From an uncultured archaeon (GTDB taxonomy: Archaea > Iainarchaeota > Iainarchaeia > Iainarchaeales > CSSED10-239): DNA of 13,590 nucleotides. Below are positions 1-11,841 of the stretch, in pieces. Both the position numbers and the translations under genes were made by a program. The notes beneath the pieces were generated by a model, which did not search any database, was not told the origin of the DNA, and was given only the letters and a program-made list of their open reading frames with translations. Position 1 is the first letter of the stretch. Each line of letters begins with the position of its first letter. The stretch spans positions 1 through 13,590 of the forward strand of contig CAYXWT010000019.1 of the NCBI GenBank assembly GCA_964468895.1, in the 5' to 3' direction.

Positions 1-84
1 TTCTTTGTACTATCTTTTGTTTTCTTTGTACTATCTTTTAATTTCTTTGTATTACCTTTTAATTTCTTTTTAAGCTTTTTAAGA
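1..84 (-). repeat. Imperfect 21-bp tandem repeat (about 4 units) within the TBP 3' end, encoding a Lys-rich heptad tail
   Basis: The units are 1-21 ttctttgtactatcttttgtt, 22-42 ttctttgtactatcttttaat, 43-63 ttctttgtattaccttttaat and 64-84 ttctttttaagctttttaaga (degenerate). On the coding strand they translate in frame to ...KKLKKKLKGNTKKLKDSTKKTKDSTK. The array is still open at position 1, so the total copy number is unknown. Confidence 0.85.
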
Positions 85-581
85 CCTTTAACAATATCTT
101 CTTCGTTTTTTGCACCAGCACATATTAATTTACCATTTTTAAAAAGTAACATAGTCAATTTAGGATCATAAATTCTAACTATTGCACCAGGAAATTGTTC
201 AGGTTCATATTCTATATTATCTAAGTTTATAGCAATATTAAATAAATCAATTTCTGTATTTAAACTTGATGTAGCTACAAGATTTACAATTTCATAAGAA
301 ATATTTCTTTTTATTTTAACATCTTTTTGAACTTCATTAATTATTTTCATAGCTTTTTTTATTGCGATTTTAATATCTTTTTCGTTAGAAGCACCAGAAA
401 CAATTATCTTACCATTTTTAAAAAGTAATAAAGAAACTTTTGGTTCACTTATTTTTAAAATTGCACCAGGGAATTGTTCAGGTTCATATTCTACTTCAGG
501 AATTGCTGTTGCTAAATTATATAAATCTAAGCCATCTCCAATTCTACTTGAAGCAACTAAATTAACTATTTTATAATCCAT
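1..581 (-). CDS. tbp: TATA-box-binding protein (TBP); 3' end runs off the window
   Basis: Absent from the supplied track because it is open at the window edge. The reverse complement from 581 reads ATG GAT TAT AAA ATA GTT AAT TTA GTT GCT TCA = MDYKIVNLVASSRIGDGLDLYNLATAIPEVEYEPEQFPGAILKISEPKVSLLLFKNGKIIVSGASNEKDI. A second repeat follows: YEIVNLVATSSLNTEIDLFNIAINLDNIEYEPEQFPGAIVRIYDPKLTMLLFKNGKLICAGAKNEEDI. Two ~93-codon direct repeats with the IVN-VA(S/T) and EYEPEQFPG signatures are diagnostic of TBP. A GAGGT Shine-Dalgarno-like motif (plus-strand acctc, 591..595) lies 9 nt upstream of the ATG. A TATATAAAAA element (627..636) lies about 46-55 nt upstream. Confidence 0.92.
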   Translation of the reverse strand, partial: MDYKIVNLVASSRIGDGLDLYNLATAIPEVEYEPEQFPGAILKISEPKVSLLLFKNGKIIVSGASNEKDIKIAIKKAMKIINEVQKDVKIKRNISYEIVNLVATSSLNTEIDLFNIAINLDNIEYEPEQFPGAIVRIYDPKLTMLLFKNGKLICAGAKNEEDIVKGLKKLKKKLKGNTKKLKDSTKKTKDSTK

Positions 582-5924: not shown

Positions 5925-6902
5925 CTATTTTTGAGGTTTAATAAATAACAATAATACAAAAATAATTAAAATACCAACTAGTAAATATTTAAAATTAAAT
6001 TTACCTTTATTAAAACTAAACAAAGCACTTATTTTTGATAAATTAGAGTCTACATTAGTTTCTGATTCTACAGATAAATTGAGATCTATATTTTTGCTTA
6101 TAGGAATAAATCTTAAAGTAATATCTTTTAATTTATTTTTTTCAAAACCATCTTGAGCATAACAAGAAATAACATATAAATCTTTAGTTAAAGTTTTATT
6201 ATTATCTACTGAAACTATTAAACTAGTAGTATTATAAGAAGAATCTACAATTTGATTTAAACTTAAGTTTTCATCAGTATCACAACTTAAAGAAAAGTAA
6301 TAATCATCAGAAGTAGATTTTAAAGTAATATCTATCACATCTTTATCGTTAACGCTATTTAATATAAAAAAGTCTCTAGAATAATTATAACCTACAAATT
6401 TAGGTTTTGAATGATCTTTAGTATTAGAAAAATATATTGGAGAATTATTATATTTAAGATTTAAATAAATTCTATCAGTATCTAACAAATTATCATATTC
6501 ATCATACAAATCAATTTGAAATTTAAGTTTAGTATTTTTATCAAAGTAATTATTTGTAGAAATATAAATATAAAAGTTATTTGAAAACGCATTTTCAAAA
6601 TAAATTATTGAATCTGATAAATCAAGATCAACATTATTATTTTTAGAACCAAAAACTTCATAAGACAATTCAATTCTAGGATTTTTATAAGTTTCAATAT
6701 CTTGTTTATTAAAATTAACAATAGAATTGAAACCTATACTTAAATCTGTATTTTTAGATAAATAAAAAGTATTACCAGCAGCATCAGAGTTATCTATTTG
6801 ATTTATTTCCAATAAATTGTTGTTTGCAAATATATTTAATGATATTAAAACTAGAAATAATAATGATAATAAATTAAATATAAATCTTTTTTTAAATAAC
6901 AT
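5925..6902 (-). CDS. Asn-rich secreted surface protein with N-terminal signal peptide and C-terminal TM anchor (no recognisable family)
   Basis: The track ORF begins at GTG 6911. The first ATG, at 6902, gives MLFKKRFIFNLLSLLFLVLISLNIFA-NNN, a canonical signal peptide. The C-terminus YLLVGILIIFVLLLFIKPQK is a TM helix plus a basic stop-transfer. The body is beta-rich and Asn/Asp/Ser/Tyr-rich, with at least seven N-x-S/T sequons and only two Cys. TAG stop. Confidence 0.7.
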   Translation of the reverse strand: MLFKKRFIFNLLSLLFLVLISLNIFANNNLLEINQIDNSDAAGNTFYLSKNTDLSIGFNSIVNFNKQDIETYKNPRIELSYEVFGSKNNNVDLDLSDSIIYFENAFSNNFYIYISTNNYFDKNTKLKFQIDLYDEYDNLLDTDRIYLNLKYNNSPIYFSNTKDHSKPKFVGYNYSRDFFILNSVNDKDVIDITLKSTSDDYYFSLSCDTDENLSLNQIVDSSYNTTSLIVSVDNNKTLTKDLYVISCYAQDGFEKNKLKDITLRFIPISKNIDLNLSVESETNVDSNLSKISALFSFNKGKFNFKYLLVGILIIFVLLLFIKPQK

Positions 6903-6959
6903 AGCTTTCACTATATAATTAAGGAGAGTTAAGTTATTTAAATAGATTTATTTTTTAAA

Positions 6960-7337
6960 TTAAGATGTTAATTTACCTGCATTATCACTTGGTGAAGAAT
7001 TATAAATCTTCATAACACTTAAAACCAAAACACCTTTAATAGGATAATTCTTGTTATTATCTTTAATCCATTTTTTAGCAACATCAAAATAATCTCCAGA
7101 TATATAATATTCTGAATTACAAATATATTGATAACTATCATAATCTTTAGTAACTAATAAACTTACAATTTTATTACTTTGAACATTATCATAAGTCTTA
7201 TTAAAATAATTATCAATAATTATGATTTTATCATTATAAATAAATTTCGCAGCAACAGTACACACATTTGGTATTTTCTCTATTGAACAAGTTCCTAATT
7301 GAACACATTTAACAGAATTAATAAAATTAAAATTCAT
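6960..7337 (-). CDS. Pyridoxamine 5'-phosphate oxidase-like (split-barrel FMN-binding) family protein
   Basis: 125 aa. The pattern LGTCSIEKIPNVCTVAAKFIYNDKIIIIDNYFNKTYDNVQSNKIVSLLV...EYYISGDYFDVAKKWIKDNNKNYPIKGVLVLSVMKIYNSSP fits the small PNPOx-like family. That family reads (LATvd-G-PN-v...dd-i-I-DN-m-KT--N---N--VSl-V ... G-f.....KG-i-i-V-ki) from memory, not from a search. AAGGAG Shine-Dalgarno (plus-strand ctcctt, 7345-7350) lies 7 nt upstream of the ATG. Confidence 0.6.
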   Translation of the reverse strand: MNFNFINSVKCVQLGTCSIEKIPNVCTVAAKFIYNDKIIIIDNYFNKTYDNVQSNKIVSLLVTKDYDSYQYICNSEYYISGDYFDVAKKWIKDNNKNYPIKGVLVLSVMKIYNSSPSDNAGKLTS

Positions 7338-7361
7338 ATCTAGACTCCTTATTTACAAAAA

Positions 7362-7448
7362 CACAGAGGATGGGATTTGAACCCACGGACAAGTTTCCCT
7401 GCCACTTAGTTTCGAACCAAGCACCTTAAACCACTCAGTCACCTCTGC
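7362..7448 (-). tRNA. tRNA-Ser (anticodon CGA), class II with long variable arm; CCA not encoded
   Basis: The reverse complement reads GCAGAGG-TG-ACTGAGTGGTTTAAGGT-G-CTTGG-TTCGAAA-CTAAG-TGGCAGGGAAACTTGTCC-GTGGG-TTCAAAT-CCCAT-CCTCTGT-G. It has a 7-bp acceptor stem (one G:U) and a D-loop with GG. The 5-bp anticodon stem carries the loop TT-CGA-AA (U33, purine 37). The variable arm is 18 nt with a CAGG/CTTG stem, and the T arm has the TTCAAAT loop. A T5 tract (7357-7361) follows directly. Confidence 0.9.
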
Positions 7449-7771
7449 AAAATAACATCATTAATAATACATAAAATGAATTTTAAAATTTGTGTAGCAC
7501 TATCTTCTTCGTTTATGTTTTTAATTATAATTTTTAAGGATGAGAATATAGTTACTTCTGAATCTTTATGTTTAATAGTTATAAAAAAAGGTATACTTTC
7601 TTTTTCAACAAATATTTTTTTAAGTTTAAATTTATTTAATAATTTTTCCAAGTCTATTTTTTTAGTAAATTTAGGGAAAAACTCAAAACCAGGAGTAGCT
7701 TTACAGGGATCTAAAATAAATTGATCTACAGTTATTTCTTTAAATTTAGCACCAAGCATATTTAACATCAT
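7439..7771 (-). CDS. Hypothetical 110-aa protein (small alpha/beta module); stop codon lies inside tRNA-Ser
   Basis: ATG-initiated ORF starting 20 nt downstream of the ATPase gene on the same strand. Its C-terminal half (FFITIKHKDSEVTIFSSLKIIIKNINEEDSATQILKFI) has a beta-beta-alpha pattern. It has no obvious Shine-Dalgarno, it is the only CDS in the window ending in TGA, and its last 10 nt overlap the tRNA 5' end. Coding status is therefore moderate. The antisense ORF 7476..7724 is judged a shadow. Confidence 0.5.
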   Translation of the reverse strand: MMLNMLGAKFKEITVDQFILDPCKATPGFEFFPKFTKKIDLEKLLNKFKLKKIFVEKESIPFFITIKHKDSEVTIFSSLKIIIKNINEEDSATQILKFILCIINDVILQR

Positions 7772-7791
7772 GAAAATTTATTTTTTAAAAA

Positions 7792-10533
7792 TTATATTAT
7801 TTGATTTACCACACCATCAACCAAAACTGGTCTTTCTTTAAATTTAGGATCTACTAACACTATTTTCCAAACTGGCCAATATATAGATTCTACACCTACA
7901 AACTCTAATTTACCCCATAATTTTTGTAAATTACCCTTAATATCAGATATATTGTTTTCAACTTCAAAAATACTACTAGTAGGCAATTCTTTCTTTCTTA
8001 AAGGTAAAATATTTAAAGAACCAATAATATTATGATTTGCTGAAAAAGGTACATCAAAATTACTAGATAATTTATAAATTTCAACATCGTGCTTTTTAGT
8101 AATGTTTACTAACAAATTTTGTTTAAAGAATTTAATTCTTTCAACAATTAATGTTTCATCTAAATCAATTTCTTGAGTTAAAGAATAGATTGTACTTTGT
8201 TTTTTTAAGAGATATAATAAATCTAAATCAGATTCTGAAAACAAAGGTAATTTTGTTAAGCCTTTAGATGCTCTAAAATTATTATTTACAAAATGTAATA
8301 GTTCACCAGTAATTGAATCTGCATAACAAACATTTCTTTTAAAATTATCATTATTATCATAAAGATTAAAATAAATTTTATATACAAGTCTATGATATAA
8401 CGAACTTTCATTAACAGTTTCTTTATTTTTAAAAAATAAATAAGATTTAGGAATTGTAGTTTTAGCTTTTTTTTCAGCAAGCTCTTTACTTATTCTTAAT
8501 GGAAAACATTCACAAATTTTATTATTTTCTTTGTCTACTTCTTCTAATTCTTCAGCAATTTCTAAAGCATCTATATCTTTAAGTTTAACTTTTTCTTCAA
8601 CATTATCATCGTTAGGAACAGTATCAAAAACATTATCATCTTCATCTACAACTTCATGATTAGAAGGATTTTCTAGTTTATCAATTTCTTTTTTAATTTC
8701 TTCAACATTATCAATATTAGATATATTTTCTTCTCTAATAAACAACTCTTTATTTTTTAAAATAATATTTAGTTCATTTAATTTTTTAAGAACTTTTTTC
8801 CAAGAAACTTTACTACGATATTTAATATTTATAATATCAAGAATATCCTGAGCATAATTTTCTTTAATTGTTCTTGTTTTTTTAATTTTATTAAATATTA
8901 GATTACTAGCCCTTTCTATCACTTCTTCATCACTTATGTCTTCTACTTGTCTAATAGTTTCTGCATCTCTACCTTCATGTTGAGAAGCACGAGGCTTAAT
9001 TTTTAAAATAAAAGCTCTACTACTTTCTTCTCTTCTATCACCTATAAGTGCAACACCTACAGGAAGTGTTTTAATAAAATTAGGCTTTTTATATTCTTCA
9101 GGAATTATTGCAGGCATTCTTTTATGAATTGCTTTAATATCATCATTAAAAACTAATTTATGACTTATAAAAATATCTACTTGACTTAAAACTTTACTAT
9201 TTATTGCAGAAGGTTGTTGAGTTGCAAATACTAATGAACAGCCTGGTCTTCTACCTTGTTTAACATATTCAACAACAGCTACAGTTGCAGGAGTTTGTGT
9301 ATTTCCTGAAGGTATTAAGGTGTGAGCTTCATCAATATATAACCAAGTAGGTGGAATTTCTATTTCTAATAATAAATCTGGATTTTCTTCTTTAGTTTCA
9401 AATTTTTTAATAGCATCTTGTCTAGTCACAAGCTTTCTAGCAGAAAGTATTCTTCTAGCTAATATTCCTATAACTAAAGCTGTAATATTATCATCTAAAA
9501 AACTAGTATCTAAAATTGTTAATTGACCTTCTCTAGAAAGTTTAGTTAAAGGAGTTCCATGGTCACTAAAGACACCCCAAGACTTTGCAGCTTCGAACCT
9601 AGATACTAATGCTCTAATAGAATCTGGTTTATAACCTTTTTGTGAAGATTTAAATTCAGTATTATTCTGTAAACAATAAATAATATCACCTAAAGTAAAT
9701 TGACTACCTTTTGGTAATATTTCTTTAAGTTCGCTATCAGATTTAGGATCTCCAGCTATATAACCATTTTTAACAAAACTTAAAGTTTTTTCTAAAAGAA
9801 GACCTGTTGGATTAAATCTATCTATTGCAAAAGTTAAACACCAATCTTCTGATTCTAACATAGAAGGAAATAAAGAAAATGTCTCATCATAAGTATCTTT
9901 AGATATTTTATCTACCATACCATCTGGTACAAATACTTTTAAATTATCTAAACCTTTTGGTTTTAAATTCCATTTTTCTAAAATTTCAAGTTCTTTTTTT
10001 TCTTGATTTGGAAATCTCATTGACCAGAAAACACCAACTGGATCAACAACGATTTGGCCTATAAAAGGATTAGTAACTGCAAGTTCTTCAGCAATAACCC
10101 CTAAACCATAACTTTTACCAGATCCACGTGATCCATCTATAAAAACAATATGTGGGTTTAGACCATCCAACCTTATATTTTTATCTTTTAAATCATCTTC
10201 ATAAACCTTACCTAAAAAAGCAGAAGATTTAGAACCATATTGTTTCAAAATGGATTTTTTTCTACCAATATATACAACAGATTTATCTTCTAAATCTTCT
10301 AATAATTTTAATTTAGGTTTAATTGTAGTATCTATTTCTTTATTATCATTATTTTTAACGATATGATCTGGTACATATTCTTTAGAACCTAAAGGTACAT
10401 TAGAATTATCTAAATCTTTAGAGTTCTTTGAATGTTCTGAACTTTCTAAAACTTTATTTTTAGAATCATCTTTAGATTCCATTTCTTCAAAAAAATCTGA
10501 TTTTTCAGAATTATGTTCTTTAATCACACTCAT
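7792..10533 (-). CDS. HerA/FtsK-superfamily P-loop ATPase (DUF87-like core) fused to a disordered N-terminus, an acidic linker and a C-terminal winged-helix-containing module
   Basis: Walker A is FIDGSRGSGKSYGLG (GSRGSGKS = 10111..10134). Walker B is WLYIDEAHTLIP (LYIDEAH = 9322..9342). The HerA-type segment GRRPGCSLVFATQQPSAINSKVLSQVDIFISHKLVFNDDIKAI is present, as is the helical insert ALVIGILARRILSARKL. The track ORF starts at TTG 10656 and adds 41 junk-like residues. The first ATG, 10533 (MSVIKEHNSEK), is preferred, with a TTTTATATAT element about 45 nt upstream. This gives 913 aa. Confidence 0.85.
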   Translation of the reverse strand: MSVIKEHNSEKSDFFEEMESKDDSKNKVLESSEHSKNSKDLDNSNVPLGSKEYVPDHIVKNNDNKEIDTTIKPKLKLLEDLEDKSVVYIGRKKSILKQYGSKSSAFLGKVYEDDLKDKNIRLDGLNPHIVFIDGSRGSGKSYGLGVIAEELAVTNPFIGQIVVDPVGVFWSMRFPNQEKKELEILEKWNLKPKGLDNLKVFVPDGMVDKISKDTYDETFSLFPSMLESEDWCLTFAIDRFNPTGLLLEKTLSFVKNGYIAGDPKSDSELKEILPKGSQFTLGDIIYCLQNNTEFKSSQKGYKPDSIRALVSRFEAAKSWGVFSDHGTPLTKLSREGQLTILDTSFLDDNITALVIGILARRILSARKLVTRQDAIKKFETKEENPDLLLEIEIPPTWLYIDEAHTLIPSGNTQTPATVAVVEYVKQGRRPGCSLVFATQQPSAINSKVLSQVDIFISHKLVFNDDIKAIHKRMPAIIPEEYKKPNFIKTLPVGVALIGDRREESSRAFILKIKPRASQHEGRDAETIRQVEDISDEEVIERASNLIFNKIKKTRTIKENYAQDILDIINIKYRSKVSWKKVLKKLNELNIILKNKELFIREENISNIDNVEEIKKEIDKLENPSNHEVVDEDDNVFDTVPNDDNVEEKVKLKDIDALEIAEELEEVDKENNKICECFPLRISKELAEKKAKTTIPKSYLFFKNKETVNESSLYHRLVYKIYFNLYDNNDNFKRNVCYADSITGELLHFVNNNFRASKGLTKLPLFSESDLDLLYLLKKQSTIYSLTQEIDLDETLIVERIKFFKQNLLVNITKKHDVEIYKLSSNFDVPFSANHNIIGSLNILPLRKKELPTSSIFEVENNISDIKGNLQKLWGKLEFVGVESIYWPVWKIVLVDPKFKERPVLVDGVVNQII

Positions 10534-10714
10534 AATAATCTTCTCAAAATTATTTCTACAAAAATATATTTTATTAATATAATATATAAAAGAAATAGTA
10601 TTTAAATAGTTAATTGTTAATCTATCTAGAATATATCTCAGAATGTACAAAAACAATTAAACTATATATGAAAAACATAAGATACAAGCTTTAAACTCGC
10701 ATAGTCTTAAGACT

Positions 10715-11608
10715 TTAGCTTTGAATCAATTTTCTATTTGTACAGATATTTTTTATACACACACAATTTTCTTGGGTTGCAACAAAAGGATTTGAATATG
10801 AAGGACAATTAGATGATGATTTCACATTATAAAATGGAACCCATTTTTTATTAATACAAACAGTTTCTGTTGATGAACAGGAACTAGGTTGTGGGACACA
10901 TTCATTATTATTATTACAAACTTTTTGTTCAATTACAGTTGGCGCATTTATATGTTCAGGATTTATAAAAGTTAAATTAAGATATTTACAATACTCTGGA
11001 TAACCATGCATAACAATTCCAAATTTTGTAGATGTACATTCTTCAAAAGTTGTTGGTTCTTCAGCTATACGTCGACTCGTAGAAACAGTTATTGTATCTA
11101 AGTCTATTGACATTATTCTGGGGTTATAATTTTCAGAATTCATACCCACAATAATCATAATAGTTAGCCCTATAAAAAAAATTACAATGCCAAATATTAA
11201 ATTAGATACCATCCTAGCTTCATCTTTAGAAAGTTCTTTAGTCTTATTGTATGTAACATTATACTCTAATTTCTTATGCTTTAATAGATATCTAATTATT
11301 ATTATAGGTATGATTGAAAAAGTAACTACTGCCCCTAAACTACTTAGAAAATAATATCTAGAATTAAACGAAATTAAAAAAAGACTAGCTACAATTAAAT
11401 AGAATAAAAGAAATATAGTTCCAATTCTGGCCCAATTATATAATTTAAATAGACCAATTCCTAAAATAAAGCAAGCTATTACAAATATAAGATTAATTAT
11501 TATTAAAAATATACTCTTCCAAACTCCTATAAGTAATAATGCAAGTGCAATTACACCTAAAAAAATTAGATATATAAAAATTAATCTAATTACATCCCGA
11601 AGTTTCAT
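10715..11608 (-). CDS. Five-TM membrane protein with C-terminal Cys-rich extracellular domain (no recognisable family)
   Basis: From ATG 11608 the protein reads MKLRDVIR, then four closely packed TM helices and a basic loop (KHKKLEYNVTYNKTKELSKDEAR). A fifth TM follows, then a ~140-aa tail with 10 Cys (EEC, EYC, KVC, NEC, SSC, TVC, NCP, NCVC, NIC). Positive-inside logic puts the tail outside the cell. The track start (11695) is TTG, and alternative ATGs are at 11686 and 11608, so the start is uncertain. Confidence 0.7.
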   Translation of the reverse strand: MKLRDVIRLIFIYLIFLGVIALALLLIGVWKSIFLIIINLIFVIACFILGIGLFKLYNWARIGTIFLLFYLIVASLFLISFNSRYYFLSSLGAVVTFSIIPIIIIRYLLKHKKLEYNVTYNKTKELSKDEARMVSNLIFGIVIFFIGLTIMIIVGMNSENYNPRIMSIDLDTITVSTSRRIAEEPTTFEECTSTKFGIVMHGYPEYCKYLNLTFINPEHINAPTVIEQKVCNNNNECVPQPSSCSSTETVCINKKWVPFYNVKSSSNCPSYSNPFVATQENCVCIKNICTNRKLIQS

Positions 11609-11841
11609 TTTAATCCAAATTAAATTATTGTCAAAACTCTTTAAATAACTAACTGTTAGATTATAATTTTGGTAAACTACTAGCATTTGGCTCAACAGAA
11701 AGGCTAGAAATGTCTAATCCAAAAGAATTATGAAACATATATAAAAACAGACTTAATACCAACAATTTTTACTAGTAACAATAAACTTTAAAACAAGACC
11801 TAATCATAAACCATTAACAGTAGAAAGTCCTAAAAATATTA

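Follow-up and report, generated by a model that had tools for sequence, protein, structure and literature searches.

A HerA-clade ATPase linked to a single TBP-domain protein: a candidate chromosome-maintenance operon in Iainarchaeota

Introduction

Do three adjacent genes on a single archaeal contig make up one machine, and if only some of them do, what might that machine be for? The question is raised by a 13,590-nt stretch of DNA (the window) on contig CAYXWT010000019.1 of assembly GCA_964468895.1 (Iainarchaeota, lineage CSSED10-239), which is archaeal, with a composition of ~22% G+C (~78% A+T), and whose genes include those for L21e, DUF655, KsgA, AMP phosphorylase, UppP and a canonical TATA-binding protein (TBP). 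The three genes in question follow one another on the minus strand and encode a Cys-rich membrane protein (10715..11608, 297 aa), a P-loop ATPase (7792..10533, 913 aa) and a small protein of 110 aa (7439..7771). A first-pass annotation of the window had proposed that all three act together in the cell envelope, taking up or transferring DNA or nucleotides. Our open reading frame (ORF) calls place the genes at the coordinates it reported and confirm its spacers, with 181 nt between the membrane gene and the ATPase gene and 20 nt from the ATPase stop to the start of the small ORF (7772..7791, minus strand).

The comparative analysis presented here divides this trio. The genes for the ATPase and the small protein, whose family resembles one half of TBP, are genuinely linked, and on balance we think it likely that they form a two-gene chromosomal operon in which a HerA-clade DNA motor and its TBP-domain partner serve chromosome maintenance in the Iainarchaeota. 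The HerA clade itself is already known; the architecture, the partner and the core-gene distribution of this ATPase are undescribed in the literature searched, which covered DPANN HerA, DUF87, FtsK-HerA, mad8 and monopartite TBP and contained no description of either the ATPase family or the pair.

The ATPase belongs to the HerA clade

The ATPase is a member of the HerA clade of the FtsK-HerA superfamily, a narrower placement than the HerA/FtsK-type assignment first made for it, and Pfam, sequence searches of the PDB and structural comparison with Foldseek all agree on this point. DUF87 scores 38.4 bits over a cut-off of 23.2 and HerA_C 22.1 bits over one of 22, the two spanning aa 132-503, and the PDB sequence search returned HerA-type chains only (best E 1.5e-7). 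When a full-length AlphaFold2 (AF2) model, built on 66 sequences with a predicted local distance difference test (pLDDT) score of 82, was compared with the PDB, the top 50 matches were all HerA, with no FtsK, VirB4, VirD4 or TrwB structure among them. The best of these was 9x1m, the HerA-NurA of T. kodakarensis (E 2.8e-18), and the S. solfataricus HerA 4d2i gave a target-normalised TM-score of 0.59-0.62, with ~450 columns of the ATPase aligned to the 458-464 residues of the S. solfataricus protein.

The catalytic motifs are preserved throughout the family. Across 66 homologues the GxRGxGKS and DEAH motifs are invariant, among ~120 invariant residues altogether. The Walker A P-loop, G134-S-R-G-S-G-K-S141 (10111..10134, minus strand), contributes G134, R136, G137, G139, K140 and S141 to this set, and the Walker B motif, W397-L-Y-I-D401-E402 (9328..9345, minus strand), contributes W397, D401 and E402, followed by the equally invariant A403 and H404. 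The open frame reaches back to a TTG at 10656, and the ATG at 10533 was taken as the start because an N-terminal motif containing D13 is kept in the homologues.

By the thresholds of curated equivalog models, the ATPase nonetheless appears to fall outside canonical HerA, with 23.6 bits against the cut-off of 800 for the NCBIfam model HerA_Thermprot and 33-34.5 bits against cut-offs of 800-850 for the HerA_antiphage models. Its best match in PADLOC is mad8, a minimal HerA-like protein, at 5.5e-19 across the full 314-position profile, with the anti-phage HerA models also matching.

Domain architecture of the ATPase

The conserved core of the protein (aa 78-525, 8959..10302, minus strand) consists of a short beta element and a RecA-like domain (aa 129-512), and most of it is modelled with a pLDDT >90. 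Conservation per 30-residue block across aa 91-510 is 0.55-0.93 and mostly 0.6-0.9. In the AF2 model the segment ahead of the RecA core (aa 78-123) consists of no more than three short strands and a helix, some 45 structured residues, and no HAS-barrel was matched by Pfam at E <= 0.1. The core is preceded by a low-complexity tail of low conservation (aa 1-66, 10336..10533, minus strand) that is predicted to be disordered (pLDDT <50). The order of the Pfam matches suggests that some homologues have a winged helix of the TrmB type in an N-terminal position.

Beyond the core, the earlier suggestion of a C-terminal domain resembling DNA-binding domains is borne out and extends to two winged helices. 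The part of the protein that holds both (aa 530-913) was also modelled apart, with an overall pLDDT of 87.5, and in Foldseek this fragment matches winged helices of the ArsR/SmtB type. The first (aa 535-600, 8734..8931, minus strand; pLDDT ~97 in the fragment model) is built of helices at 535-553, 558-572 and 578-587 and a hairpin at 590-599, and it is followed by an acidic linker (aa 603-669, 8527..8727, minus strand) with a pLDDT <50 and a conservation of 0.15-0.33 that is predicted to be disordered. The C-terminal module (aa 671-913, 7795..8523, minus strand; pLDDT ~97) places the second, TrmB-like winged helix between two PepSY-like domains; among 16 family members Pfam recognised PepSY in 8 (best 5.4e-7) and TrmB also in 8 (best 3.8e-7), and a profile of the module matched the winged helices of MecI, AdcR and MarR among PDB sequences. 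The PepSY-winged helix-PepSY module as a whole found no counterpart in the PDB or BFVD, where only generic winged helices of ~65 residues were matched. Hydropathy gave no transmembrane (TM) segment anywhere in the ATPase. The C-terminal module was also considered as the missing half of a split TBP and rejected, with hhalign giving a probability of 0.2% against the profile of the small protein.

Set beside archaeal HerA (4d2i, 9x1m), the window ATPase thus has the same RecA-like core, Walker A and B motifs, 'ATQ(Q/R)PS' region and combination of DUF87 with HerA_C, and by homology it is likewise presumed to be a hexameric translocase of double-stranded DNA (dsDNA). It differs in what precedes the RecA core, apparently just a short beta element and no recognisable HAS barrel, in its ~390 additional C-terminal residues with winged helix, acidic linker and PepSY-winged helix-PepSY module, and in its genetic context, where a TBP-domain partner takes the place of the nuclease and linkage to NurA, Mre11 or Rad50 is absent. 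FtsK and SpoIIIE belong to the same superfamily, and a C-terminal winged helix would be the functional analogue of FtsK gamma, and a role in segregation is a plausible analogy; the window ATPase, however, lacks their N-terminal membrane domain, matches neither FtsK_SpoIIIE nor Ftsk_gamma in Pfam, and carries winged helices of the ArsR/TrmB/MarR type.

A conserved chromosomal gene family

The ATPase family is chromosomal and very conserved, and its synteny is stable within the clade of the window. More than 720 homologues were found, the best 120 of which are 800-1460 aa long, share 43-80% identity over >90% of the length, and carry the source names archaeon, Diapherotrites, Iainarchaeum and Micrarchaeota. 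Signature peptides of the family occur in at least 585 GTDB species-representative genomes. The 80 loci that were kept come from 80 different assemblies, mostly of Iainarchaeota (DPANN), including the complete Forterrea multitransposorum and AR10. The gene lies among housekeeping genes in conserved order (GDPD, YdjM, UppP, AMP phosphorylase, KsgA and L21e). Four homologues (L074, L078, L080 and L090) contain inteins of ~435 aa (Pfam Intein_splicing and LAGLIDADG_3), all inserted inside the Walker A loop at residue 141 in the window numbering. P-loop inteins are typical of conserved core genes.

The family is missing from phage and viral collections. A tblastn search of 50,697 phage records gave no match, no family member was present in the 2.9 million contigs of IMG/VR, and plasmids gave partial matches to the core only, covering at best 44% of the query. 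This best plasmid match is a minimal DUF87 ATPase of 389 aa from a Haloplanus plasmid, 30.7% identical over aa 122-524 (E 4e-45). The plasmid gene (Haloplanus sp. HW8-1, NZ_CP098519.1, 114950-117258, locus L093) overlaps by 4 nt a gene for a 380-aa protein with a weak match to the PglZ profile, and a BREX-associated ATPase ('BREX system ATP-binding domain-containing protein') and PD-(D/E)XK and helicase genes are encoded nearby, a gene set that is a candidate defence module.

The small protein is a single TBP domain

The small ORF had been described as an orphan, and this description does not hold, since no fewer than 77 close homologues exist; at E <= 1e-3 the family comprises 263 representative clusters, of stand-alone proteins of 85-105 aa in nearly every case. 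PADLOC, PHROGs and NCBIfam searches with the small protein, as with the Cys-rich membrane protein, yielded nothing useful. Profile comparison identifies the protein as a lone TBP domain, equivalent to one half of TBP: all 35 PDB matches to a 17-member family profile are TBPs, the best being that of M. jannaschii (2z8u, E 8.4e-7), and 13 of the 17 members match Pfam TBP (best E 9.3e-6). Five of the 17 also match DUF3378, RNase HIII's N-domain, and some members bear the source names 'ribonuclease HIII' and 'ArsR family metal-binding transcriptional regulator'. Taken alone, the window protein scores 19.2 bits against Pfam TBP, under the cut-off of 22.9. Cys23 and Glu30 are invariant in the family.

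The 110-aa protein has one TBP repeat, against the two tandem repeats (~180 aa) of canonical TBP, which is encoded separately. The canonical protein of the window (1-581, minus strand) has both repeats and a Lys-rich C-terminal tail, its ORF runs past the end of the window, and it is the only other match in the window, a weak one, to the hidden Markov model of the small-protein family (E 8.8e-5). Stand-alone TBP-domain proteins, monopartite and distinct from canonical TBP, have been described in Thermococcales without an assigned function (Brindefalk et al. 2013, PMC3597702), and we found no later literature on the function of such proteins. The resemblance in size (~95-110 aa) and organisation is one of description, and no named Thermococcales protein is among the matches of the window family, which is set apart by its invariant Cys23 and Glu30 and by its linkage to a HerA-clade ATPase, a context absent from PMC3597702.

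The gene for a distant stand-alone TBP-domain protein of 95 aa (P0260; locus L091, 6001-6288; E 1.3e-9 against the family profile) has an aminotransferase gene on one side and genes for NifU, TusA and cysteine desulfurase on the other, an iron-sulfur context with no ATPase gene near it, and linkage to the ATPase therefore holds only for the closer TBP-domain subfamily. Together with the invariant Cys, this context hints that the TBP-domain family might have a different or additional role.

The 3' end of the small ORF overlaps another gene that was missing from the earlier account. A tRNA-Ser(CGA) gene (7361..7449, minus strand) covers its last 11 nt, stop codon included, and an overlap of 10-11 nt is kept in the related loci L095, L001 and L002; in L008 and L013 this tRNA-Ser gene lies upstream instead, beside two further tRNA-Ser genes. 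If one transcript covers both the tRNA and the small ORF, cleavage by RNase P would strip the small ORF of its stop codon.

Linkage between the ATPase and TBP-domain genes

The link between the small ORF and the ATPase is genuine, and the family of the small protein is the commonest neighbour of the ATPase. Linkage was counted in 81 non-redundant ATPase loci with enough flanking sequence, of which 25 have the small TBP-domain gene directly downstream of the ATPase and 6 have it within 6 kb. On a neighbour-joining tree of the ATPase, direct adjacency is found throughout the window's clade but for one member, again in a deep second clade (L004, L052, L055, L057, L060 and L088-L090) and in L092, and the cases in which the gene is merely nearby are scattered through a third region of the tree. 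In all, adjacent pairs occur in no fewer than three of its deep branches. The association was also recovered from the opposite direction, as the genes for four distant homologues of the small protein (22-35% identity) each follow directly, on the downstream side, a gene for a DUF87 ATPase (941-1437 aa). The two genes are separated in related loci by ~3-60 nt or overlap by a few bases, and for this reason they are probably co-transcribed.

Other neighbours are more restricted. No gene upstream of the ATPase is recurrently conserved. The first-pass annotation noted that none of the usual HerA partners is visible in the window, and this extends to related loci: no NurA, Mre11/Rad50, Sir2 or nuclease partner was found in 12 Pfam-annotated neighbourhoods, and no NurA, Mre11 or Rad50 was among the recurrent neighbour clusters of ~85 loci. 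In the second clade the ATPase/TBP-domain pair is followed by a gene for a DUF3566 protein of ~110 aa with two TM segments (Pfam matches over threshold, E 3e-11 to 3.5e-5; L004 8519-8869, L055 8862-9209, L088 5949-6275, L089 6343-6666, L090 6365-6706), which is also present in L052, L060, L066 and L080 and which, where the TBP-domain gene is displaced, follows the TBP-domain gene. DUF3566 is otherwise an uncharacterised bacterial membrane domain, and no such gene occurs in the window.

In one subclade the gene for SMC, a chromosome-segregation protein, is located 2.5-5 kb downstream of the ATPase (7003-10047 in L083, from 11059 in L092, and in ~8 more loci). The neighbour in L083 was considered as a possible Rad50 and rejected, since it scores 533 bits with the SMC model TIGR02169 against 124 bits for Rad50. 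In L001, Orc1/Cdc6 and SepF are encoded just upstream of the ATPase. The proximity of SMC, Orc1/Cdc6 and SepF is a weak hint of chromosome maintenance.

The Cys-rich membrane protein lies outside the unit

The third gene has the features originally ascribed to its product. Hydropathy has four peaks across residues 9-155, the first of which (residues 9-54) is broad enough for two helices, so that four to five TM segments are expected where five had been counted, and the ten Cys of the proposed ectodomain lie within residues 191-289, with one more inside a TM segment. Its open frame reaches a TTG at 11695.

What fails is its association with the ATPase. In none of 94 related loci did phmmer or tblastn searches find a homologue of the membrane protein within ~6 kb of the ATPase. 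In the nearest relative (L095, with an ATPase 76-80% identical), a gap of 356 nt stands where the window has the membrane gene, and the order of the locus (GDPD, ATPase, small ORF, 338-aa protein, YdjM, UppP, AMP phosphorylase, KsgA, DUF655, L21e) is otherwise collinear with the window. A metagenome scan recovered the membrane protein only in strain-level contigs of 91-100% identity. The membrane protein is a recent strain-level insertion unrelated to the ATPase unit; of the proposed three-gene module, the link between the ATPase and the small ORF stands, as homologues of the ATPase are syntenic with the latter, and the membrane protein drops out of any conserved module. The TATA-like element reported in the 181-nt spacer between the two genes is also inseparable from background, with 40 promoter-like matches against 32 +/- 5 in shuffled sequence. 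At 78% A+T a scan of the window for promoters and terminators was uninformative, and its sole 'terminator' was the T-arm of the tRNA. The case is a caution for annotation, as adjacency in one genome was taken for a module and the membrane protein that gave the locus the look of a translocon is strain-specific.

Proposed function and alternatives

The best reading of the pair is a housekeeping dsDNA translocase, with readings as a defence, mobile-element or DNA-uptake system being weaker. A core function is suggested because the ATPase, at 900-1100 aa, is extremely conserved, is targeted by inteins and is retained in genomes of ~1 Mb. By homology, the ATPase would assemble into a hexameric ring and pump dsDNA through its central pore. 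The winged helices and the TBP-domain protein, which may contact the ATPase physically and may itself dimerise to mimic the saddle of TBP, would recruit the motor to chromosomal DNA or set its orientation on it. Translocation could then serve to segregate or resolve sister chromosomes when the cell divides, much as FtsK does, or to process DNA ends or stalled structures. Possible, though more doubtful than the operon itself, is the broader proposal that the Iainarchaeota, and possibly other DPANN, share a phylum-wide and probably essential HerA-derived motor with a TBP-domain subunit and, in some lineages, a DUF3566 anchor.

Most archaea are without FtsK, and a motor of this kind bears on chromosome segregation or repair in DPANN archaea with small genomes. 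If the proposal is true, the pair would represent a previously unrecognised chromosome-handling machine, whose task might be segregation, the resolution of dimers or the import of DNA at the membrane. It would also give stand-alone TBP domains, described in 2013, their first functional context; through its linkage to the ATPase this class of single-domain proteins, which also figures in proposals on how TBP arose, gains a partner and a setting that can be tested.

Several observations weigh against the chromosome-maintenance reading of the pair. Of the 81 loci, 50 lack a TBP-domain gene within ~6 kb of the ATPase, so the two need not be linked. The nearness of SMC, Orc1 and SepF is a matter of subclade synteny and may be coincidence. 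PepSY domains are usually extracytoplasmic, and the DUF3566 gene of one subclade leaves room for a membrane-associated function. The closest curated profiles are those of anti-phage proteins, mad8 and HerA, and the Haloplanus homologue sits in a setting that resembles a defence island. TBP domains are, moreover, also found in contexts that do not involve DNA binding (PMC3597702).

Of the alternatives, one keeps the ATPase close to its nearest structural relatives and sees a divergent orthologue of canonical HerA, active in the resection of double-strand-break ends, with NurA, Mre11 and Rad50 encoded elsewhere in the genome. The order of fold matches (T. kodakarensis HerA-NurA, then S. solfataricus HerA) and the presence of both DUF87 and HerA_C speak for this, and in mesophilic archaea herA, nurA, mre11 and rad50 are often unlinked. 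We nevertheless judge it rather unlikely, given equivalog scores far below their cut-offs, the lack of a HAS-barrel match where only ~45 structured residues precede the RecA core, a ~390-residue C-terminal extension whose two winged helices and PepSY-like domains are foreign to HerA, and 12 Pfam-annotated neighbourhoods with no NurA, Mre11 or Rad50, the L083 neighbour being an SMC protein. The same fold comparison brings in solved anti-phage HerAs as close matches, and these, with the PADLOC profiles and the Haloplanus plasmid genes (BREX-type, PglZ-like and PD-(D/E)XK), are the case for an anti-phage system of HerA plus effector (Sir2-HerA, DUF4297-HerA, TdpAB or MADS type), in which the TBP-domain protein would be the sensor or effector. 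Anti-phage HerA systems and mad8 do resemble the window pair in combining a HerA-type ring with a small dedicated partner gene. Defence genes are, however, typically patchy and fast-evolving, and the anti-phage systems are scattered among defence islands, whereas the window family is broad (at least 585 species genomes, 80 loci from 80 assemblies), highly conserved and embedded in stable housekeeping synteny. Its P-loop inteins are of a kind associated with core genes, its partner has no enzymatic effector domain, PADLOC matched the ATPase only and none of the four neighbours tested, and no nuclease, Sir2 or methyltransferase adjoins it in the annotated neighbourhoods; defence is accordingly an improbable explanation. 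About equally improbable is an ATP-driven remodeller of transcription or chromatin, whose TBP-like subunit and winged helices would bind promoters or displace TBP. This draws on the homology of the partner to TBP, on winged helices of the TrmB/MarR type that is typical of archaeal transcription regulators, and on the canonical TBP gene in the same window, although that gene is 7 kb off and is not co-localised in other loci. The functions of HerA-clade proteins known to us are all DNA translocation or helicase activity or nuclease scaffolding, and we know of no precedent for a HerA-type transcription remodeller.

The envelope machine originally proposed, comprising the membrane protein, the ATPase and the small ORF, had in its favour three adjacent genes on one strand and an ATPase from a translocase superfamily; the two-TM DUF3566 protein that follows the pair in a sister subclade makes membrane tethering of some family members conceivable. 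The version that includes the Cys-rich membrane protein is refuted by synteny, namely by the 94 loci without a homologue, its absence from L095 and its confinement to near-identical contigs. Envelope-associated uptake as such finds no support in the window, where the 181-nt spacer sets the membrane gene apart from the ATPase, the ATPase has no TM segment and a fold like that of HerA and not of VirB4, VirD4 or FtsK, there is no conserved partner of the pilin, channel or polytopic kind, and DUF3566 is lacking. The Ced system (CedA, CedA1, CedA2 and CedB), with its HerA/VirB4-like ATPase near membrane proteins, had served as the analogy; in the window the polytopic neighbour is not conserved with the ATPase, and no pilin-like or CedA-like partner is present. 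We consider a role in uptake or transfer very improbable. The notion that the ATPase is the remnant of a DNA-packaging or conjugation ATPase of a plasmid or virus draws on weak PHROGs matches (phrog_7035, 2.3e-16, and a terminase-large-subunit family, 1.2e-9 over aa 392-587 only) and on an integrase upstream in one locus, L092. With the family absent from phage records and IMG/VR, plasmid matches covering at best 44% of the query, a chromosomal position that is stable across the clade and no recurrent capsid, portal, relaxase or integrase neighbour, it is hardly credible.

Other genes flanking the pair

Two further genes downstream of the pair differ in their conservation. A 328-aa protein with no family match (5925-6911, minus strand) has a signal-like N-terminal segment and a C-terminal TM anchor, and it is kept downstream of the ATPase/TBP-domain pair in 12 related loci of the window's clade. 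The PNPOx-like protein of 125 aa (6960-7337, minus strand) has no counterpart in the related loci, the collinear L095 included. Together with the Cys-rich membrane protein, the PNPOx-like protein looks like a recent lineage-specific insertion into a conserved gene array.

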